The notes under the pieces were generated by a model that was not told where the DNA came from, did not search any database, and saw only the letters and a list, made by a program, of their open reading frames with translations. Of a stretch of DNA of 59,280 nt, positions 25,449-35,069 are shown one piece after another (position 1 is the stretch's first letter; each line of letters opens with the position of its first letter). Source of the stretch: Anaerolineae bacterium (GTDB taxonomy: Bacteria > Chloroflexota > Anaerolineae > S140-20); NCBI GenBank assembly GCA_027021705.1, contig JALUTT010000037.1:1-59280 (forward strand). Reading direction: 5' to 3'. A program made the translations under genes and the position numbers.

Positions 25449-26420
25449 ATGCTCAACCTGAATGACCTGGCCGTCTTCCTGGCAGCGGCGGAGACCTGCA
25501 ACTTCAGCGAGGCGGGGCGGCGGCTGCACCTCTCGCAGCCGGCGGTGAGCCAGACCATCCGCCGGTTAGAAGAGCGGTTCGGCACCCGGCTCTTCCGGCG
25601 GGATGGTCACTGCGTGCGCCTGACCGAGGCGGGCCAGGTCCTGGTGCCGATGGCCCGGGAGCTGCTGGTGGCGGCCAAGCGGCTGGAGGAGACGATGGCC
25701 TCGCTGCAAGGGGCGGTGGTGGGGGAGATGACCATCGGCTGCTCCACCTCCTCGGGGCGCTACCTGCTCCCCGGCCTCATCGCCCGCTTCCGCGCCCGCT
25801 ACCCCAACGTCCGCGTCAACGTCCACATCCACGCCCGGCGGGAGGTGCTGGACCGGCTTTTGGACGGGCGGCTCGGCTTCGGCGTGAGCAGCAAGCGGGT
25901 GGAGCATCGAGACCTGGAGTACCAGCACTTCTTCACCGACGAGGTGATCCTGATCGTGCCGGCGGACCACCCCTGGGCCGGCTACCGGCGGGTCTTCCCC
26001 GATGACCTGCTGGACGAGCCGATGATCCTGCGGGAGGAGGAGGCGGGAACGCGGGAGGTGCTGCTGGAGGGGCTGTTGGAGCACGACATCTCGCCGGACA
26101 TGCTCCAGGTGGCGATGGTTCTGGGCAGCGCCGAGGCCATTGGGCGGGCGGTGGCCGAGGGGATCGGCGTCGCCTTCGTCTCGCGGATCGCCGTGGCCCA
26201 GGGGTTGGCCTTGGGGCAGGTGGTGGAGGTTGCCGTCGAGGGGCTGGACCTACGCCGGGAGATCTACCTGGTGCGCAATCGGAGCCGGCCCTTCACCCGG
26301 GCCCAGGCGGCCTTCTGGGAGTTCGTGAAGGCCCTCCCCGAGGAGCTGGACGCGGGAACCTTCCCCTCGCTGGCCCCCGTCTGCTACACCCCCGGCGAAG
26401 GGCTTTCTGTGCCTATTTAG
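25449..26420 (+). CDS. LysR family regulator (CysL-like)
   Basis: NFSEAGRRLHLSQPAVSQ HTH; IGCST, REEEAGTRE, GSAEAI. Confidence 0.92.
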   Translation: MLNLNDLAVFLAAAETCNFSEAGRRLHLSQPAVSQTIRRLEERFGTRLFRRDGHCVRLTEAGQVLVPMARELLVAAKRLEETMASLQGAVVGEMTIGCSTSSGRYLLPGLIARFRARYPNVRVNVHIHARREVLDRLLDGRLGFGVSSKRVEHRDLEYQHFFTDEVILIVPADHPWAGYRRVFPDDLLDEPMILREEEAGTREVLLEGLLEHDISPDMLQVAMVLGSAEAIGRAVAEGIGVAFVSRIAVAQGLALGQVVEVAVEGLDLRREIYLVRNRSRPFTRAQAAFWEFVKALPEELDAGTFPSLAPVCYTPGEGLSVPI

Positions 26421-27053
26421 TCCACAGTCCACAGTCCACAGTCCTCAGTCCGCACTTGGTCGCTTGGTCATCTAGTCGCTTGGTCGAGTAGTCCTCAGTC
26501 CTCAGTCCTCAGTCCTCGGTCCATAGTCCATCGCTATGCCGCTAGGCCGCTAGCCGCTAGGCCGCTAGCCGCTACGCCGCTATGCCGCTAACCACTACGC
26601 CGCTACGCCGCTCGTCCCCTGCCCCTCAGTGCCTCGGCCCTCGGTGCCTCCCCCCGCCGGGCCGCTATGCCGCCAGCCGCTATGCCGCCCTGGAACGGAT
26701 AGCTGTCAGCGGATTTGAGAACGGATTGAGCGGATGGGAGACGTAGTCCTCGGTCCTCAGTCCTCGGTCCTCAGTCCGCCGCTAAGCCGCTATGCCGCTC
26801 GATCGGCGGTCCGCGGTCGGACGCAGTCCACAGTCCACAGTCCTCAGTCCTCGGTCCATAGTCCGTCGCTATGCCGCTCGATCGGCGGTCCGCGGTCGGT
26901 CGTCGGCGGTCGGACGCAGTCCACAGTCCTCAGTCCTCAGTCCTCAGTCCATAGTCCATCGCTATGCCGCTAGGCCGCTAGCCGCTAGGCCGCTAGGCCG
27001 CTACGCCCCTCGCCCCTCGCCCCTCAGTGCCTCGGCCCTCGGTGCCTCCCCCT
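26419..27053 (-). repeat. Two to three tandem composite repeat blocks
   Basis: CAGTCCA/CAGTCCT, TTGGTCGC, GCTATGCC, GCCCCTC modules ending in AGTGCCTCGGCCCTCGGTGCCTCCCCC. Confidence 0.85.
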
Positions 27054-27266
27054 ACTCCGCCATTCCAACGCCTTCCGTTGGAGTTCGAGCGCAGTGTACT
27101 GATCGCGGTAATCCCGCAGGACGCCGGCCCAATCTTGGCGGAGCTTCCTGCCCGCTTTCGGGCGGTGCTTCATCAGAAGAAATTCCACAAAATCCCTGAC
27201 CACCCTCTGCGCATAGGGCGGTAGCTCTTTGACGAGTTCCGGTAGGGGCTTAACGGCCATACCCAT
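27024..27266 (-). CDS. DUF2281-type antitoxin-like small protein
   Basis: LVKELPP..VRDFVEFLL..LRQDWAG.L..YTALELQ.KALEWR; GAGGAG RBS; C-terminus runs into the repeat. Confidence 0.75.
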   Translation of the reverse strand: MGMAVKPLPELVKELPPYAQRVVRDFVEFLLMKHRPKAGRKLRQDWAGVLRDYRDQYTALELQRKALEWRSRGRHRGPRH

Positions 27267-27339
27267 TGCCCGCTCCTCATCCGAAAAACTCAAACGAACA
27301 CCGTTCTGTGCCGAATCCAGACGGACAATCCGCGGTAGA

Positions 27340-27369
27340 AGTATACCACTTCCACCCGCCGGTGCCCAA
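27340..27369 (-). promoter_or_regulatory. Promoter of the DUF2281 gene
   Basis: TTGGGC-18 bp-TATACT abutting the repeat block. Confidence 0.5.
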
Positions 27370-27371
27370 CG

Positions 27372-27632
27372 CAGTCCACAGTTCACAGTCCGCAGTCCTC
27401 AGTCCGTACTTGGTCGCTTGGTCGGGTGGTCACTTGGTCGGGTGGTCGAGTAGTCCTTGGTCCTCAGTCCTCAGTCCTCGGTCCATAGTCCATCGCTATG
27501 CCGCTATGCCGCCAGCCGCTATGCCGCTACGCCGCTACGCCGCTATGCCGCTAACCACTACGCCGCTAGCCACTACGCCCCTCGCCCCTCGCCCCTCAGT
27601 GCCTCGGCCCTCGGTGCCTCCCCCCGCCGGGC
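27372..27632 (-). repeat. Composite repeat block
   Basis: Same module order as 26419-26662. Confidence 0.85.
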
Positions 27633-30600
27633 GGCTCCCGGAGCCAGGGGGGAAGGGGTTGGCCGGTCGCCTCCTGCCAGAGGGGGTCGAACCGCTCCGG
27701 CCCCAACTCCTGCCGCCAGCGGATCAGCACTTCGGCCATCGCCCGTTGGGTTTGGGGCTCGATGCCCAAACGCTGGAGTAGGGCCAGACCGGAGACCAGA
27801 GCGCGGAGCGCATCGGCGTGACGCTCCATCGCCCACAGGGTTTGGCCCATCATCCCTAGGGTGATCGCCATACCCTGTTGGTCCCCCAGGCGCTCCTTGA
27901 TCGCCAGAGACTCCCGGTAGAGGCCCATCGCCCCCTCCAGGTCGCCCCGTTGGGCGAGGATGCCGGCCATCTCGTGGAGGGTGGCGCTCCGGCCCCGTTG
28001 GTCCCCCAGGCGCTCAGCGACCTCCAGCGCCTCCCGGTAGAGGCCCATCGCCCCCTCCAGGTCGCCCCGCACCCGCAGGATGTAGGCCATCTCGTGGAGG
28101 GTGGCGCTCCGGCCCTGTTGGTCCCCCAGGCGCTCGTCAATCTCCAGCGACTCCCGGTAGAAGCGCATCGCCCCCTCCAGGTCGCCCCGATCGGCGAGGA
28201 TGCCGGCCATCGCGTGGAGGGTGGCGCTCCGGCCCCGTTGGTCCCCCAGGCGCTCCAGGGTTTCCAGCGCCTCCCGGTAGAGGCCCATCGCCCCCTCCAG
28301 GTCGCCCCGATCGGCGAGGATGCCGGCCATCTCGTGGAGGGTGGCGCTCCGGCCCCGTTGGTCCCCCAGGCGCTCGACGATTTCCAGCGCCTCCCGGTAG
28401 AGGCCCATCGCCCCCTCCAGGTCGCCCCGTTGGGCGAGGATGCCGGCCATCACGTGGAGGGTGGCGCTCCGGCCCCGTTGGTCCCCCAGGCTCCCGTCAA
28501 TCTCCAGCGCCTCCCGGTAGAGGCCCATCGCCCCCTCCAGGTCGCCGTAGTGGCGCAGCAGCCAGCCCAGGTGGAAGCGAAAGGCCGAGGCCCGCCCCTC
28601 GTCCTCCACCCATCCCACCGCCCGCTCCAGGTCCGGCAGCATCCGCTGCACCACCTGGGCCAGCACCGGCTTCTGCCAGATGGTGCCGTAGGCGTGGGCG
28701 GCCAGGGCGGCGTAGGCCTCGCCAAAGGCGGGGCGCAGGGGGGCCAGCACCGCCTCCCCCGCCTTCGCCTCGGCGTAGGCCCCCAGCGTGGGGTGCAGCC
28801 GGTAGAGCAGCGCCCACCCCGTCGGGTCCACCACCTTCACCCGCTCCACCATCCCCCGGCGCCAGAGCCGGTGCAGCCACTCCCCCACCGCCTCCTCCGC
28901 CTCCCCCAGGACCGCCGCCACCACCTCCGGGGGGAAGGGGGCGGTGAAGAGGGCCAGGCGGGGGAAGCGCTCCTGCAGCTCCCGGGGCAGCGCCTCGTAG
29001 GAGTAGTCGAAGCAGGCCCAGAGGCTCTCGTGGCGGGCCTCCTCGCTCCAGGGGTCCTCCACCGTGGGCAGCCGGGCGGCCAACCCCTTCCGGAAGTCGG
29101 CCAGCGACCGGGGAAAGTCCTCGAAGGCGGCGGCCAGGAGGCGCAGGGCCAGGGGGTGGCCCCCCACCTGCCGGCTCAGCGCCTCCATCTCCGCCCGGTC
29201 CGCCCGCTCCCGGCCCGTCCCGGCGTGCTGGGCGAAGAGGCGGGCCCCCGCCGAGGGGGTGAGGCCGGTCAGGGGCACGACTTCCTCCCTCGGCAGGCCC
29301 ACCACCGCCCGCCCCGTCAGGAGCAGGGTGGTCTTGCCCCCCACGGCCCGGCGCAGCAGGCCGCCGATGGCCCGGGCCCTGGCCCTTTCCTCCTGCTCCT
29401 CGGCGCCCCCCTCCTCCCCCCTCTCCCCCTCCACCGCCCTCACCAGCGTCTCCGCGTTGTCCACCACCAGGAGGAGGCGGCGGGCCCGCAGCGCCTCCTC
29501 CACCCGGTGGCGCCACCGGCGCACCGGCTCCTCCGGGTCGCGGGGGAGCCCCAGGAAGTCGCCCAGGCGGGTCAGGAGCCGCTCCGGGGAGGGGAGCCGC
29601 TCCAGGGAGAGGGTCAGGACGCCGTCGGGGAAGGCCCAGGCGAAGCGGCGGGCCGCCTCCCGCGCCAGGGCGGTCTTGCCCATCCCCCCGCCGCCGTGGA
29701 TGGTGATCGCCGGCGGGCGGGCCTCGCCCGTGAGGAGGTCGCCCAGATCCACCAGCTCCCGCTGCCGTCCGACGAACTCCCCCTCCACGGGGGGGAGGTC
29801 GCTCAGGTCCACCCGCTCCGGCGGGGGCGGGGGCGTCCGCACCCGGGCCTGCCCCTCGGCCAGGGGGAACCGGGCCCGGGGGCGAGAGAGGCCGGTGTAG
29901 AGGACGGGGATGGCCATCAGCAGGGGCTCCTCCTCCAGGGCCATCCGGGCCCGGCGGACCGCCTCCTCGACGGGGTGGCTCCGGGCCAGGTAGGTGTAGA
30001 AGCGGGCGGCGAAGCGGCGGGCGGTGGCGTCGGGAACGGTGAACTGCATCCCCAGGGCGTAGGGGATGCCCTGAGCGACGAGGGCACGGGCCAGGCCGGC
30101 CAGGTCGGTGCGGGCGGGGGCGGCGGTGAGGCAGGCGTTGAGGAAGACCAGGCGGGCCTTGCCCCGCACCCGGCGGACGAAGTGGTCGGCGGGAACGGGG
30201 TGGGAAGCGCCGTTGGGCTGCTCGAAGAGCAGGAAGGCCCCCTCCTCGGTCACGGTGCCGTGGCCGGCGAAGTGGACGATGCCGGTGGCGACGTCGGCCA
30301 GGGCCTCATCCAGGGCGTCCAGGGTGGGGGGGAGGACCTGGACCAGGTCGTAGGGGGCGTCCAGGCCGGCGATGGCCTCCCGCAGCGCCTCCCACTCCTC
30401 CAGGACGGCCAGGGGCCGTTCCTCCGGCTCCCCCTGGAGGGAGAGGAGGGGGGAGGCGGGGAGGAAGAGGATGGGCAGGCGCTCCAGGCGGGCCTCCGAC
30501 CAGGCGGCCCGGCGTCGGTCAGGGGGGAGGCCCCGCAGGAGGTAGAAGTCCAGGGCCAGGAAGCGGGCACCGTCGTGGAGGAGCTCCCAGGGGATGGCGT

Positions 30601-30868
30601 CGAGGACGGGGTGGTCCAGGACGAGGAGGAGGGTGGCCCGGGGGTCGGGGGCGGCGGGGAGGGCGGTCAGCGCCTCGGCGGCGGGGCCGTCGGGGGGGAA
30701 GAGGGCGGCGTAGAGGGCCCGGCCGTAGGCGGCGGGGTCGTCCGGGATCACCCGCCCTCCCTCGGCGGTCGGGGCGATCGCGCCCAGGTCGAAGCGGTGG
30801 GCCGGGGTGCCGTTCACGGCTACCCGGACCTGGTTGACGCCGGTGGGGGTCAGGGTCAGTTCCAGCAT
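27596..30868 (-). CDS. CHAT protease + STAND/NB-ARC-like NTPase + TPR protein
   Basis: IPWELL, HFAGHG, LVFLNAC, GMQF; FVGRQREL, GGGGMGKT, LLVVDNAE, GHPLAL; six 40-aa TPR repeats. Confidence 0.88.
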   Translation of the reverse strand: MLELTLTPTGVNQVRVAVNGTPAHRFDLGAIAPTAEGGRVIPDDPAAYGRALYAALFPPDGPAAEALTALPAAPDPRATLLLVLDHPVLDAIPWELLHDGARFLALDFYLLRGLPPDRRRAAWSEARLERLPILFLPASPLLSLQGEPEERPLAVLEEWEALREAIAGLDAPYDLVQVLPPTLDALDEALADVATGIVHFAGHGTVTEEGAFLLFEQPNGASHPVPADHFVRRVRGKARLVFLNACLTAAPARTDLAGLARALVAQGIPYALGMQFTVPDATARRFAARFYTYLARSHPVEEAVRRARMALEEEPLLMAIPVLYTGLSRPRARFPLAEGQARVRTPPPPPERVDLSDLPPVEGEFVGRQRELVDLGDLLTGEARPPAITIHGGGGMGKTALAREAARRFAWAFPDGVLTLSLERLPSPERLLTRLGDFLGLPRDPEEPVRRWRHRVEEALRARRLLLVVDNAETLVRAVEGERGEEGGAEEQEERARARAIGGLLRRAVGGKTTLLLTGRAVVGLPREEVVPLTGLTPSAGARLFAQHAGTGRERADRAEMEALSRQVGGHPLALRLLAAAFEDFPRSLADFRKGLAARLPTVEDPWSEEARHESLWACFDYSYEALPRELQERFPRLALFTAPFPPEVVAAVLGEAEEAVGEWLHRLWRRGMVERVKVVDPTGWALLYRLHPTLGAYAEAKAGEAVLAPLRPAFGEAYAALAAHAYGTIWQKPVLAQVVQRMLPDLERAVGWVEDEGRASAFRFHLGWLLRHYGDLEGAMGLYREALEIDGSLGDQRGRSATLHVMAGILAQRGDLEGAMGLYREALEIVERLGDQRGRSATLHEMAGILADRGDLEGAMGLYREALETLERLGDQRGRSATLHAMAGILADRGDLEGAMRFYRESLEIDERLGDQQGRSATLHEMAYILRVRGDLEGAMGLYREALEVAERLGDQRGRSATLHEMAGILAQRGDLEGAMGLYRESLAIKERLGDQQGMAITLGMMGQTLWAMERHADALRALVSGLALLQRLGIEPQTQRAMAEVLIRWRQELGPERFDPLWQEATGQPLPPWLREPPGGGRHRGPRH
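27876..28546 (-). repeat. 120-bp intragenic tandem repeats encoding TPR units
   Basis: GTCCCCCAGG recurs at 27881, 28001, 28121, 28241, 28361, 28481. Confidence 0.9.
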
Positions 30869-30892
30869 AAGCGGCTCCTCATCGTGGGGGCA

Positions 30893-31345
30893 TCACAGGC
30901 GGAAGAGCAGCAGGTCGGCCAAGAGCAGGATCAGGAGCAGGGTGCCGGCCCCGAAGGCCCAGGAGGCCCGGTTCAGCCAGCGGGCCTTGGTCCGCTGCAT
31001 CGCCTCCCACCGGTCCTGCATCTGGGTCAGGCTGTGACGGCGGAAGGTGTAGGGCCGGGGGAGGACGGCGGCGAGGGCGCAGCCGAGGGCCGCGCCGTAG
31101 GCGACAACGATGACCAGGCCCAGCCCCCGCACCTCTCCGTAGGCCAGGTAGGCGGGGGCGTCTCCCAGGGAGAGCAGCCCCAGGAAGAGGCCCAGCAGCC
31201 CCGTCACCAGCGTGATGATCTGCCGTGCGCCGGCGTCCAGGACCTCCAGAGAGCGCTTCTCCATCTCGGCGAAGTGGGCGACCAGCGCCTCCTCGTCGGG
31301 GGTCGGGGGTCGGCCCAGGACCTCCAAGGGCTCATCGCTGCCCAT
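30893..31345 (-). CDS. Three-TM membrane protein, Pycsar-effector-like topology
   Basis: Helix-TM-TM-LPR-loop-K..L.RA-TM layout; overlaps the upstream gene. Confidence 0.7.
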   Translation of the reverse strand: MGSDEPLEVLGRPPTPDEEALVAHFAEMEKRSLEVLDAGARQIITLVTGLLGLFLGLLSLGDAPAYLAYGEVRGLGLVIVVAYGAALGCALAAVLPRPYTFRRHSLTQMQDRWEAMQRTKARWLNRASWAFGAGTLLLILLLADLLLFRL

Positions 31346-31526
31346 CGCTCACCTCCGCGAGGGAGAAGGTGATGGGCCGGCCGCACTCCTTGCAGGTGAC
31401 GCGGTAGGTCTCGCTCCGGCCCGCCTCCTCCAAGCGGTAGACGGTCGCCCGGCGGTCCATCTCCTCCAGTGTGTAGGCGTTCCGGTGTCCGCAGTGGGGG
31501 CAGGTGACGAAGACGTGTTTGGCCAT
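31332..31526 (-). CDS. Small zinc-ribbon protein (64 aa)
   Basis: CPHC..CKEC; GAGGAGGAG RBS. Confidence 0.75.
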   Translation of the reverse strand: MAKHVFVTCPHCGHRNAYTLEEMDRRATVYRLEEAGRSETYRVTCKECGRPITFSLAEVSDGQR

Positions 31527-31573
31527 CGGCTCCTCCTCGGCTTCCGGGGATAGGGGAACGATCTCCTGCTACG

Positions 31574-31602
31574 ATTATAGCCCAGAGGGGAGCCCTGCGC
31601 AA
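31574..31602 (-). promoter_or_regulatory. Promoter of the Zn-ribbon/TM/CHAT operon
   Basis: TTGCGC-17 bp-TATAAT abutting the repeat block. Confidence 0.7.
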
Positions 31603-31730
31603 AGGGGGGATGAGGGATGAGGGATGAGGTAACGAGGGCCGAGGGGCAAGGGGCAGGGGGCAGCGGCTTAGCGGCTGGCGGCATAGCGGCTTAGCGACGG
31701 ACTGTGGACCGTGGACTGAGGACCGAGGAC
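31603..31730 (+). repeat. Composite repeat block, left arm
   Basis: GGGATGA, GGGGCAA, GCGGCTTA, GGACTG modules. Confidence 0.8.
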
Positions 31731-31732
31731 TA

Positions 31733-33085
31733 AGTACAGCTTTGCGTAAATGTGTTCCTAGTCTTGACTAGCCGGCCAGATGGGGTATACTTGGGCCAGG
31801 AGGTGAACGATGCCAGGACCTCAGCCCAAGTACCCCATCCAATTGACGCCGGAGGAGGAGAAGGAACTCCGCCAATTGGTCAACTCTCCCAAAGCGCCCC
31901 AGGGCCTGGTGATGAGAGCCCGCATCATCCTGGCGGCGCACGATCATCCCGACCGGAGCAACCAGCAGATTGCCCGAGAAGCGGGCTGCACCGACCGGAC
32001 GGTCCGGAAGTGGCGGCGGCGATGGGTGGAACGGCGCAGCATCGAAGACCTGCCTAGGCCGGGGGCTCCCCGGCGTTTTCCCCCCTGAGGTGCGGGCCCA
32101 GGCCACGGCGCCGGCTTGTAGTATGCCCCAGGAGGAGGGGGTGCCCCTGGGGCGGTGGAGCTACGCCGAGATCGCCCGTCGGCTCGTTGCCTTGGGGTTG
32201 GTCGTTTCCATTGCCGTCAGCACCATCGCCCGCCGGCCGGCCGCCGAGAAGCTGAAGCCGTGGCGCTACCACACCTGGCAGCACATCTTGGACCCCCAGG
32301 CCTTCTTGGAGCGGGCTCGCCCCATCCTGAACCTCTACCAAAAGGCTCAGGCCCTGTGGGAAGAAGGCGTATGGGTGGTCTGTGTGGACGAGAAGACTTC
32401 CATTCAAGCTCGCCAACGGACACCTCCTCCCGAGCCGGCCATTCCGGGGCAACCGGTGCATATCCCCTCCCGTTACCGGCGTCGTGGGGCCTGGCAATTG
32501 TTCGCCGGATTGAGCGTGGTGGATGGGATGGTCTTTGGGCAATGTCGGGAGCGAAAGCGCTTCGTGGACTTCCAAGCCTTCCTGTTGGAGACGCTCTTCC
32601 CGGAGGCCTTGAAGCGGGGGGTTCGCACCCTGGTGCTCATCTTGGACAACAGCACCACCCACGCCCCCAAGCAGTGGGAAGGATGGCTGCAGGAACAACT
32701 CGAGACGGGGCGGTGGCCCTTCACCGTTGAGGTGCGTTGGTTGCCCACCAACGCCTCTTGGCTGAATCAGATCGAAATCCGGTTCAGCATCCTGCAGCGG
32801 AAGGTGTTGCAGCCCAACCATTTCACCGGCTTGGAGGACCTGGAGAAGACCCTTCAGGGTTTCATTGCCCACTACAATGAAACGGCCAAGCCGATTCGAT
32901 GGTCCTACACCGCCGAAAAGCTTGAACAGAAACCGGCGATGAACTGACTCGGTGGTGAATGCTCCCATCGTGCCTTCCGTGGACGCTTGAGGCAGGTCGG
33001 AAGCGTGGCCGGTTTGCTCTGAGCCTGCCTCTCACCGGTCCGCTTACCCATCCTTACTAGGAACGAACTTGTGCAAAGCTGTACT
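31733..33085 (+). mobile_element. IS630 family insertion sequence
   Basis: TIRs AGTACAGCTTTGCGTAAATGTGTTCCTAGT / ACTAGGAACGAACTTGTGCAAAGCTGTACT; TA duplicated at 31731-31732 and 33086-33087. Confidence 0.9.
31810..32947 (+). CDS. IS630 transposase (two ORFs, -1 frameshift)
   Basis: HTH ORF 31810-32088; slippery TTTTCCCCCC at 32076-32085; DDE motifs VDEK, LDNSTTH, SWLNQIE. Confidence 0.85.
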
Positions 33086-33087
33086 TA

Positions 33088-33183
33088 AGTCCTTGGTCCT
33101 CAGTCCTCAGCCCTAGGACCTTGCCCCTTGCCCCCTGCTCCTTGCCCCTTGATCCTCAGTGCCTCGGCCCTTGGTGCCCCCCC
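33088..33183 (-). repeat. Composite repeat block, right arm
   Basis: GTCCTCA and TTGCCCC modules, ending AGTGCCTCGGCCCTTGGTGCCCCCCC. Confidence 0.8.
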
Positions 33184-33205
33184 TGGTCAGCAGACATTGC
33201 CCCCC

Positions 33206-33235
33206 TTGACCAGGTGGCAGAGTGTATGCTATAAT
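33206..33235 (+). promoter_or_regulatory. Sigma70 promoter
   Basis: TTGACC-18 bp-TATAAT with extended -10 TG. Confidence 0.7.
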
Positions 33236-33298
33236 GGGCATAAGCCAGGAGAGACGAGGCCGGCCTGGAGACCGGGCACTCGCGGGAGCCATAAGGCC

Positions 33299-33451
33299 GG
33301 TGATTACCCATATCTTTGGAGATAGGGAGACCAGCCGTCCACGAATGGGGCACGAATACACGAATTAAGGACCGCCTCATTCGCGCATTTGTGAGAAATT
33401 CGTGGACGGCCTGCTATGGACCACTCTCTCGCTCCCTTGTGGGTAATCACC
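33299..33451 (+). mobile_element. MITE-like element family B, copy 2
   Basis: Perfect TIR GGTGATTACCCA / TGGGTAATCACC; matches 9031-9175. Confidence 0.85.
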
Positions 33452-33520
33452 GCAGCCATGAGGGGATTGCGTTGCGGTCGCCTATCCCAGATGGTGCCCC
33501 GAGCGCCCGGTTATCTATTT

Positions 33521-33599
33521 GAGCGTGCCCGAGAGGGGTTGATGTAGGAACAGCCCGCAGGTTGCCTCTCCACCCTGCCAACGAGTTTTGGTCACACCC
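33521..33599. mobile_element. Short remnant with family C-like ends
   Basis: Right end TTTTGGTCACACCC identical to 7623-7636; left end GAGCGTGCCCGAGA degenerate. Confidence 0.4.
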
Positions 33600-33677
33600 C
33601 TCTATTTCGGACACTCTAGGGAGGATTTTACCTCAATTTGCCAGGGGGCGCAAGGCAGAGCGCGGGGTCGTCCAACA

Positions 33678-34886
33678 ATGTTTCAAGCCATACAGAGGCT
33701 GCCACAATGGAAACGGACCCTGTACATTGTGTTTGTTGCCCAGCTCATCTCTGCGATAGGATTTTCCAATATCTTCTCTTTCCTCCCTCTGTACATCCAA
33801 ACCCTGGAGACCAGAACCTCACTTAGCGTAGAATTCCTATCGGGATTGGTCTTCTCCGCGCAGGCTATGACGATGATGATAGCATCGCCTTTCTGGGGCA
33901 TGGTTGCTGACCGCTATGGGCGCAAACTGATGGTGCAGAGGGCGATGTTCGGTGGTGCGGTCATCATCCTGCTTATGGGGTTTGTACAGTCAGCCGAGCA
34001 ATTGATCATCTTGCGAGCAGTTCAGGGCTTGGTAACGGGGTCTATTTCTGCCTCAAGTGCGCTGGTTGCTGCGGAGACTCCCCGTAGGCGGACCGGATAT
34101 GCTATGGGAATGCTACAAGTTGGCTTTTGGGGTGGGCTCGCCACCGGCCCATTGCTGGGTGGAATCGTTGCTGATGCATTTGGCTACCCCAGTGCGTTCA
34201 CAGTCACTTCAATACTACTTGCGGTTGCCGGAGTGTTGGTTGGGGTAGGTGTGAGGGAAGCATTCGCCCCGCCGAAGAGGGCTGGGAGGAGAGGGCCCAA
34301 TCCCTTATCCGGCTGGAAGCGCATCTTGGGTTCCTCAGGTGTGAAGCTCGCTTATGGGCTGCGCTTTTTGAGCAGCTTGGGCAGGATAATGATCGTGCCC
34401 ATTGTACCTTTGTTCATCTCGACCCTCCTACCCCTTGGTGCACAGGTGAACACCTTCACGGGGATCGTCGTGGGGTCGGCCTCAGCAGCGAGCACAGCCA
34501 CTGCGTTTTACACGGGACGACTGGGGGACCAGATCGGGCATCGGCGCATTTTGAAGATCAGCGCATTGGCAGCCGGGCTGTTCTATCTCCCCCAGGGTTT
34601 GGTGACAGAAGCATGGCAGCTATTGGTGCTGCAGGTATTAGCGGGCGCAGCAACTGGAGGTATGATTCCAACGCTTAGTGCTTTGTTGGCTAACTACACA
34701 CGGCCCGGAGATGAAGGGAGTGTCTATGGATTGGACAACTCCATCGTATCCGCTTCCCGGTTTGTGGCTCCACTGGTAGGTGGAGGGATTGCCCATTGGC
34801 TTGGCTATCGCGGTACGTTTGTAGCGATAGGACTTCTATTTTGGTTGATCGTTCTACCGATCGTTTTGCGTCTTCCAGAGAGTTAG
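33678..34886 (+). CDS. MFS drug:H+ antiporter (MdtG-like)
   Basis: WKRTL, SPFWGMVADRYGRKLM, LRAVQG, GPLLGG; about 12 TM. Confidence 0.9.
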   Translation: MFQAIQRLPQWKRTLYIVFVAQLISAIGFSNIFSFLPLYIQTLETRTSLSVEFLSGLVFSAQAMTMMIASPFWGMVADRYGRKLMVQRAMFGGAVIILLMGFVQSAEQLIILRAVQGLVTGSISASSALVAAETPRRRTGYAMGMLQVGFWGGLATGPLLGGIVADAFGYPSAFTVTSILLAVAGVLVGVGVREAFAPPKRAGRRGPNPLSGWKRILGSSGVKLAYGLRFLSSLGRIMIVPIVPLFISTLLPLGAQVNTFTGIVVGSASAASTATAFYTGRLGDQIGHRRILKISALAAGLFYLPQGLVTEAWQLLVLQVLAGAATGGMIPTLSALLANYTRPGDEGSVYGLDNSIVSASRFVAPLVGGGIAHWLGYRGTFVAIGLLFWLIVLPIVLRLPES

Positions 34887-35069
34887 AACAGGGAAGAGGT
34901 GTTCGACCGCCCGTAGGCATCCAAACGGCTCGGAGGCAAGTATGTCCGTGACTGAGTGGAGCGACCACTCAACCGAGGCTCGTCCGTGAGTTATGGCGAT
35001 TGATGGGGAGGCACATCGAGGACGGGACGAGAAACAGCCATGCCCCACAATGGCCGGGAGGGACCCACC

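Follow-up and report, generated by a model that had tools for sequence, protein, structure and literature searches.

We analysed a 59,280-nucleotide (nt) stretch of DNA from an Anaerolineae bacterium (GenBank assembly GCA_027021705.1, contig JALUTT010000037.1, positions 1 to 59,280 of the forward strand; referred to here as the window), in which three genes follow one another head to tail on the minus strand: ZNR, encoding a small zinc-ribbon protein; TM, encoding a small membrane protein; and a large gene encoding a CHAT caspase-like protease, a STAND NTPase, and a TPR region in a single polypeptide (Table 1). As the initial annotation had described, the open reading frames (ORFs) form an operon. 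They are tightly packed; the ATG of TM lies inside the 3' end of ZNR, giving a 14-nt overlap, 24 nt separate the TM stop from the start of the large gene, and a GGAGG-type ribosome-binding site can be read before each of the three genes. The same annotation gave the operon a promoter of its own. The −10 element is a perfect TATAAT at the end of a 17-nt spacer, but the −35 element (TTGCGC) matches the consensus at only 3 of 6 positions, and for this reason a consensus promoter scan did not report the site; a promoter belonging to the trio upstream of ZNR is therefore plausible only. No terminator-like site was found by a scan at the operon.

The Pfam domains of the large protein bear out the tripartite, NLR-like build proposed earlier, with a TPR region following the NTPase. 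We aligned the window protein with five orthologues from other genomes (30 to 33% identity over the full length), and in the CHAT domain H199, G202, H203, G204, N244, A245, and C246 are invariant in all six sequences. These residues fall in the motifs HFAGHG (196-204) and NAC (244-246), which hold the predicted His/Cys dyad; from the caspase fold, we take His203 to be the catalytic His. In the NTPase core, NACHT scores 29.9 bits, above its cutoff of 26.7, and NB-ARC 23.0 bits, just below its cutoff of 23.5. Both Walker motifs had been called intact: Walker A (GGGGMGKT, 392-399) has the GGxGKT pattern, with G394, G395, G397, K398, and T399 invariant, whereas Walker B (VVDNAE, 468-473; D470, N471, and E473 invariant) retains its Asp but reads D-N rather than DD or DE. 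As far as the sequence can tell, the catalytic and P-loop residues of the large protein are intact. The TPR region contains near-identical units whose 120-nt direct repeats are 82 to 90% identical at the DNA level; the differences lie mainly at unit positions 16, 17, 32, 35, 38, and 39, and pairwise comparison of units gives 142 nonsynonymous versus 29 synonymous codon differences, which are raw counts to which the degenerate sixth unit contributes much. The number of repeats varies among orthologues. Against PADLOC-DB v2 at E ≤ 0.1, the large protein matched TPR (3.6e-23), SAVED_CHAT (0.0015, weak), and C3a156 (0.053); no Avs or NLR model matched in this library, which predates families named after 2023.

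TM has three hydrophobic segments centred at about residues 52, 85, and 138, and an AlphaFold2 (AF2) model built from 17 sequences places helices at 16-59, 70-94, and 106-149 (predicted local distance difference test score [pLDDT], 81). Loop 96-127 carries 8 Lys/Arg and 2 Asp/Glu, so that by the positive-inside rule the topology is inferred to be N-in, C-out; a near-invariant basic pair, with K120 invariant, precedes the third helix. The likeness to Pycsar membrane effectors suggested by the initial annotation holds among the relatives of TM: PycTM (PF18967) is the family they match most often (6 of 10, best E 0.03), it matches 8 of 30 in a larger set (E ≤ 1, best E 4.7e-5), and it is precomputed on 2 of 10 database homologues. 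In the ESM Atlas, TM falls among Chloroflexota clusters of about 145 residues in which 11 to 21% of members carry PycTM, and its structure scores against clusters that are 97 to 100% PycTM are 0.71 to 0.74. A Foldseek comparison, the check proposed earlier, returned nothing for the TM model in the PDB at E ≤ 0.001, and a wide VIA-align search gave a best Z of 9.3 to generic helical bundles, within the noise range for helical models. We regard TM as a borderline member of a PycTM-like family with three membrane helices (3TM). It also matches the PADLOC model PDLC01077 ("C3a152, Type III-C specific") at E 4.4e-7, as do 10 of 10 relatives (best E 8.6e-24). A profile search of 1.84 billion representatives yielded 588 matches at E ≤ 0.001, 208 at ≤ 1e-10, and 52 at ≤ 1e-30; among the 150 matches listed nearly all are 140 to 170 residues long, and TM is therefore a stand-alone protein. 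The public names visible for its homologues are "hypothetical protein." Anti-sigma and holin readings were rejected, there being no sigma factor and no phage context.

In ZNR, the cysteines C9, C12, C45, and C48 are invariant in 22 of 22 orthologues, and an aromatic-basic pair, Y30 and R31, is conserved in the alignment. Pfam gave generic zinc-ribbon matches only (best, Cys_rich_CPXG, E 1.2e-5). The AF2 model (pLDDT 72.6; five strands, one helix) would fit a zinc ribbon; Foldseek found no match to it at E ≤ 0.001, zinc-ribbon proteins and Cren7 being among the weak rows at the top of its list. A complex prediction for TM (30-row alignment) with ZNR (22-row alignment) scored 0.02 against a mark of 0.32, which speaks neither for nor against binding.

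The case that these genes belong together comes from other genomes. A first TM-based survey, with one genome per species, gave nine loci (related loci are designated L and a number). Five have a CHAT-STAND-TPR gene (1,184 to 1,394 residues), ZNR (65 to 68 residues), and TM (142 to 151 residues) on one strand with tiny gaps, and two more are cut within the TPR gene at a contig end; at L002, where the contig ends, ZNR precedes TM as it does in the window, and at L003, which begins its contig, only a C-terminal piece of the large gene is left. In a second survey of an even sample of 401 Chloroflexota genomes, TM was present in 26 genomes and in 19 of 218 genera. We examined 28 TM places outside the source genome, with about 7 kb on each side, by a scan with custom hidden Markov models and by reading the gaps by eye. 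A CHAT-STAND-TPR gene lies on the same strand within about 3 kb at 21 of these 28; at 17, ZNR is directly upstream of TM, and at 4 the layout is that of the trio except that the ZNR module forms the C terminus of a TIR_2 protein (201 to 298 residues). Two gene orders occur, one with the large gene ahead of ZNR and TM (order A) and one, found in the window, with ZNR and TM ahead of the large gene (order B). The other seven places comprise ZNR and TM only (L049), STAND or CHAT genes on the other strand (L067 and L069), decayed fragments (L059 and L063; L066 is a decayed copy as well), a TM fragment (L068), and a 3.8-kb contig (L070). Seven further loci came from metagenomes; all four with upstream sequence carry either the C terminus of the large gene or a STAND and TPR pair (L076 and L077), and ZNR was detected in six of the seven. 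In nearly every case, ZNR is the gene immediately upstream of TM.

A reverse survey of the same 401 genomes, using residues 1 to 340 of the large protein as query (E ≤ 1e-22), pointed the same way: 15 of 25 matches outside the source genome adjoin a TM gene, 2 lie in fragmented genomes (G393 and G327) with a TM gene at the edge of another contig, and 8 are in genomes in which TM was not detected. All 15 matches at E ≤ 1e-31 are in TM-bearing genomes, and 12 of these 15 align across an N-terminal module (residues 1 to 45) that precedes the CHAT domain. Seven of the eight CHAT matches without TM start aligning only at residues 34 to 95 and therefore lack this module; the source genome encodes 10 CHAT proteins, one TM, and one ZNR, and none of the other nine CHAT paralogues matches the query before residue 46. 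The initial annotation had said that small genes not conserved next to CHAT-STAND homologues would speak against it; since they are conserved there, in both directions of search, that objection falls away. In a TM tree, the loci with a TIR-ZNR fusion form one clade (support 100/99), and the six architecture labels can be placed on it with 6 changes, compared with a mean of 15.5 after shuffling; as relatives share their labels, this is a sign of clustering and not of co-evolution. That the linkage survives rearrangement is shown by the two gene orders and the TIR-ZNR clade, and conservation in other genomes excludes chance adjacency; it is very likely that the three genes make up one functional module.

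What the module does can be proposed from its parts. It is of the NLR/STAND type, and its most likely role is in abortive infection or regulated cell death, for which we see about an even chance; a conflict or immune role as such is probable. By analogy with systems already described, we put forward, tentatively, a specific mechanism in which the protease releases a pore. The C-terminal TPR array would bind a protein derived from an invader or from stress, the ligand-bound STAND NTPase would oligomerise, and oligomerisation would bring the N-terminal CHAT domains together, proximity activating the protease. CHAT would then cleave either ZNR or a part of TM that lies in the cytoplasm (its N-terminal segment or a loop), and the cut would free the PycTM-like TM to oligomerise and collapse the membrane potential, leading to cell death or arrest; ZNR would serve as an adaptor or safety catch between protease and TM. 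We read ZNR as a constant adaptor module because it is nearly always upstream of TM, is translationally coupled to it in the window, and can be fused to TIR. Candidate cut sites, which are guesses from conserved positions, are Y30/R31 of ZNR and, in TM, the basic pair that precedes its third helix (K120). The analogies are with established cases: phage proteins are bound by the TPR sensors of STAND proteins, which oligomerise (PMC13581612), a fungal gasdermin is cleaved by a CHAT domain encoded next door (PMC8851545), and PycTM and PucTM are membrane-acting 3TM antiphage effectors (Pucsar preprint 10.64898/2026.08.12.744502). In its fullest form, which is possible but somewhat doubtful, the proposal is of a protease-gated pore system independent of gasdermins, in which the three-helix module of Pycsar is wired to a caspase-like NLR, and ZNR is an exchangeable safety catch that the protease removes and that also occurs fused to TIR. 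Several signs of a conflict system accompany the trio, namely, its patchy spread, decayed copies, a copy in a Chromatiaceae bin, defence neighbours at 3 of 27 loci, near-identical TPR units with mostly nonsynonymous differences, and an adjoining IS630-type transposase.

Bacterial bGSDM operons pair a gasdermin with a protease. The trio likewise has a CHAT protease with sensor repeats adjacent to a membrane protein, and in the fungal systems of HET-Q1 with HET-Q2-like CHAT or NLR proteases, too, a CHAT protease, sometimes built as protease-NOD-repeat, is encoded beside a membrane-permeabilising effector (PMC8851545). The partner in the trio, however, is a 150-residue integral, all-helical, three-helix protein and not a gasdermin, no Pfam match to the gasdermin family was obtained in any of the three proteins, and the trio has an obligatory third gene, the zinc ribbon. 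Like the Pycsar and Pucsar effectors (PycTM and PucTM; PF18967, "pJV1-spdB3 family 3TM"), TM is a small protein with three membrane helices, but its partners are a CHAT-STAND-TPR protein and a zinc ribbon, and, as the initial annotation had noted, there is no cyclase (PycC or PucC), either in the three proteins or among the window ORFs from 11 to 48 kb. Avs and bNACHT proteins share the arrangement, with an effector domain at the N terminus, a STAND NTPase in the middle, and a TPR sensor at the C terminus; the trio differs in that its effector domain is a protease, it has two dedicated partner genes, and it has no Avs or NLR match in PADLOC.

The family C3a152 (Shah et al. 2018, PMC6546367; PDLC01077) is the same protein family as TM. 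It is cluster 152 of that study, with three members and Cylst_6373 as representative, and no function is proposed for it there. The window locus has no cas gene nearby, and only one of 27 related loci, L043, has Cmr3 and Cmr5 in its vicinity; this may be the reason why the TM family carries a type III-C accessory label. Until now, the TM family had been seen only as a CRISPR-accessory candidate without an explanation and as a PycTM outlier. The trio works like gasdermin-protease and NLR-like systems, yet it lacks a defining feature of each named family with which it was compared, in keeping with the earlier remark that no named system fits (PADLOC gave TPR, the weak SAVED_CHAT, C3a156, and C3a152 only). 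We found no published description of a ZNR-3TM-CHAT-STAND trio in a literature search that took in PMC7159879, PMC8195603, PMC13581612, and PMC13069673 but not the supplementary tables of Kaur et al. 2020 or catalogues later than PADLOC v2, which could list it. The trio is a real, conserved variant of the NLR-type protease systems, of predicted function and apparently undescribed.

Several observations weigh against the proposal that CHAT cleavage switches on a TM pore. Unlike gasdermins, TM is already an integral membrane protein, and how cleavage would switch it on is not obvious. The window TM itself matches no Pfam family at cutoff (PycTM, 11.3 bits against a cutoff of 27.2). L049 has ZNR and TM and no CHAT gene, with no large gene within 7 kb; at L067, an HTH-TIR-NB-ARC-TPR protein (HTH, helix-turn-helix) is encoded on the opposite strand, again with no CHAT gene; and at L076 and L077 an nSTAND2-EAD7 protein and a separate TPR protein replace the CHAT-STAND-TPR gene.

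The presence of TM in the membrane, with no obvious pro-form, would be expected if the roles were reversed, with ZNR and TM forming a membrane input or docking unit that senses envelope damage or recruits the complex to the membrane, and CHAT acting as the effector on other proteins of the cell or phage. The EACC1-caspase systems ("System 4" of Kaur et al. 2020, PMC7159879) provide a model, as a small membrane-protein gene 5' of a caspase-X gene has been proposed there to encode a membrane sensor that activates the caspase; the caspase-fold proteins in that article are N-terminal caspases followed by variable modules, including STAND NTPases and repeats, and the window likewise has a small TM gene followed by caspase-STAND-TPR. 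That ZNR can bear an extra TIR domain, as adaptor-type components do, also fits. However, a sensor is already provided by the TPR array, the nearest recognisable family of TM is the effector family PycTM, and EACC1 has one membrane helix where TM has three, with no EACC1 match to TM in Pfam (none at E ≤ 0.1). Nor is a zinc ribbon described for EACC1-caspase systems in the main text of PMC7159879, where ZnR appears for GTPase systems only. We consider this reversal unlikely.

The TIR-ZNR fusions raise another reading, in which the signal that opens TM is a small molecule, as it is in Pycsar, made by TIR in the fusion clade and by another source in loci of the window type, and the protease acts elsewhere. 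PycTM and PucTM effectors do respond to cyclic nucleotides (preprint 10.64898/2026.08.12.744502), and a TIR_2-ZNR fusion stands directly upstream of TM at five loci (TIR_2 E 3e-12 to 4e-14). In four of the five fusions a helical linker separates the TIR and ZNR parts. The presumed position of the catalytic Glu of TIR domains is, however, occupied by Glu in only two of these five proteins, and there is no nucleotide-generating enzyme in the window operon or its flanks; small-molecule gating has, in our view, only a slim chance of being correct.

Cleavage-gated killing by the trio is also weakened by its surroundings. The window locus lies outside any defence island and among housekeeping neighbours: between 11 and 48 kb we found multiheme cytochromes, a four-domain rhodanese protein, a LysR regulator, an MFS transporter, a Ser/Thr kinase, a two-component pair, RidA, and a Sir2-family protein, and no cas, restriction, or cyclase gene (24 ORFs scanned for cas). 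A PADLOC scan of 148 flanking ORFs at 27 related loci (L043 to L070 without L068) found clear defence neighbours at only 3. These are L043 (genome G295), with Cmr3 and Cmr5 genes (type III-B/C) about 5 to 6 kb from the trio; L044, near a type IIG restriction-modification gene; and L060, which adjoins two methylases and a type II restriction enzyme. The other PADLOC matches among neighbours (mad3/mad8, a kinase, and a TnpB-like protein) are generic. The GC content at third codon positions (GC3) of the operon, 0.95, is in line with the 0.91 to 0.94 of neighbouring genes, and base composition thus gives no hint of recent transfer; a foreign base composition of the operon was accordingly rejected, since its 28-to-31-kb region, at 74 to 77% GC, has a GC3 close to that of its neighbours.

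These surroundings would suit a nonimmune module of filamentous Chloroflexota for regulated proteolysis or membrane signalling, for example, in developmental cell death or stress signalling, as would the lack of matches on mobile elements: 118 pattern matches in viral contigs included none that was confirmed, and tblastn gave no match on plasmids. Among sequencing runs, three DNA runs and no RNA run were listed with a match, which is uninformative on expression. Such a module is distinctly unlikely, given that the occurrence is patchy, copies have decayed, one copy is found in a Chromatiaceae bin, the TPR repeats are near-identical and variable in number, and the genome holds 10 CHAT proteins, traits that fit conflict systems better than they fit a core pathway. 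The copy in the Chromatiaceae bin (L010) is a complete trio whose TM is nested among those of Chloroflexaceae, as sister to L003 (support 90/85), and it represents either horizontal transfer or a mis-binned contig.

If the proposed protease-released pore is correct, the trio would add a third kind of executioner to caspase-like and NLR-type bacterial immunity, beside gasdermins and direct killing by proteases, and would provide a second activation route, one that is genetically tractable, for the poorly understood 3TM proteins of the PycTM type. One family of membrane effectors would then be driven in two unrelated ways, by small-molecule signalling and by proteolysis; with a partner of 64 residues and a defined protease, the switch would be easy to dissect, and the orphan "CRISPR accessory" family C3a152 would be explained. 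Both the nSTAND2-EAD7 variant and the fusions of TIR to ZNR suggest an output cassette, ZNR-TM, that is portable among different STAND sensors, which would be useful for predicting further systems.

Table 1. Coordinates of the trio, its parts, and related features (window positions unless a locus is given)
Feature	Position	Strand	Description and basis
ZNR	31332..31526	-	64 aa, CPHC and CKEC pairs; ORF list
TM	30893..31345	-	150 aa; ORF list
CHAT-STAND-TPR gene	27596..30868	-	1,090 aa; ORF list, Pfam domains, orthologue alignment
ZNR-associated GAGGAGGAG	31538-31530	-	sequence
Candidate promoter	31574..31602	-	TTGCGC 31602-31597, 17-nt spacer, perfect TATAAT 31579-31574; sequence read
N-terminal module, residues 1-45	30734..30868	-	aligns in TM-linked orthologues
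CHAT caspase-like protease domain, residues 47-313	29930..30730	-	Pfam PF12770, E 9.2e-34
His203 codon	30260-30262	-	invariant 6/6
Cys246 codon	30131-30133	-	invariant 6/6
STAND P-loop NTPase core, residues ~364-524	29297..29779	-	Pfam AAA_16, AAA_22, NACHT, NB-ARC
TPR sensor region, residues ~758-1047	27728..28597	-	Pfam TPR_12/TPR_10; TPR_12 in 5 stretches up to 992
Six near-identical 40-aa TPR units, residues 775-1014	27827-28546	-	120-nt direct repeats
IS630-type transposase	31810-32947		directly upstream of operon
Inverted repeats bracketing operon	27453-27533; 31657-31737		88% complementary
Composite repeat copies	26420-27600; 31640-31745		~70-100 nt, several copies
DUF2281 ORF	27024-27386	-	DUF2281, E 3.1e-11
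Cmr3 and Cmr5 genes	L043:12320-13563		type III-B/C
TIR-ZNR fusions	L058:3783-4388; L064:6108-6935; L065:6169-6969; L066:6083-6931; L067:7481-8305		L067 on minus strand
nSTAND2-EAD7 with separate TPR protein	L076:2932-5699; L077:2213-4980		replace CHAT-STAND-TPR gene
g71 ~1,045-aa ORF	L047:7531-10665; L049:7617-10760; L050:7606-10749; L063:1295-4438; L048:3766-6900		L048 on minus strand
DUF4160/DUF2442 pair	L049:5987-6584; L050:5984-6533		ahead of ZNR; Pfam from L050 copies only
Separate ORFs of C-terminal extension	L003:1332-2123; L009:479-1162		~300-residue extension of order-A large proteins

The inverted repeats that bracket the operon were considered as the ends of a mobile cassette and rejected, as this repeat is dispersed through the genome, with 66 matches spread over many contigs; they are therefore uninformative on the mobility of the operon. 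The composite repeat is made of GTCCTCA-type and GCCGCTA-type units, and two of its 66 matches lie near other CHAT genes (C88 and C181). Between copies of the dispersed repeat, just downstream of the large gene, is the small DUF2281 ORF, with a domain that occurs in antitoxin-like proteins; no partner gene was identified for it. The IS630-type transposase upstream of the operon is split into an HTH ORF (92 residues) and a DDE_3 ORF (325 residues) in overlapping frames, and is either a frameshifted copy or a case of programmed frameshifting. The only clear compositional outlier near the operon is the stretch that holds the MFS transporter gene (33000-35000), at 56% GC against about 67% for the window.

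Some lineages carry additional parts. The order-A large proteins of L004, L005, L009, and L010 have a C-terminal extension of about 300 residues that has no Pfam match and is absent from the window protein; it also occurs as separate ORFs. A DUF4160/DUF2442 pair lies ahead of ZNR at L049 and L050, and at L050 it stands between the large gene and ZNR. In genus g71, an ORF of about 1,045 residues, with no Pfam or PADLOC match, directly follows TM on the same strand and may, in this lineage, be a fourth component.

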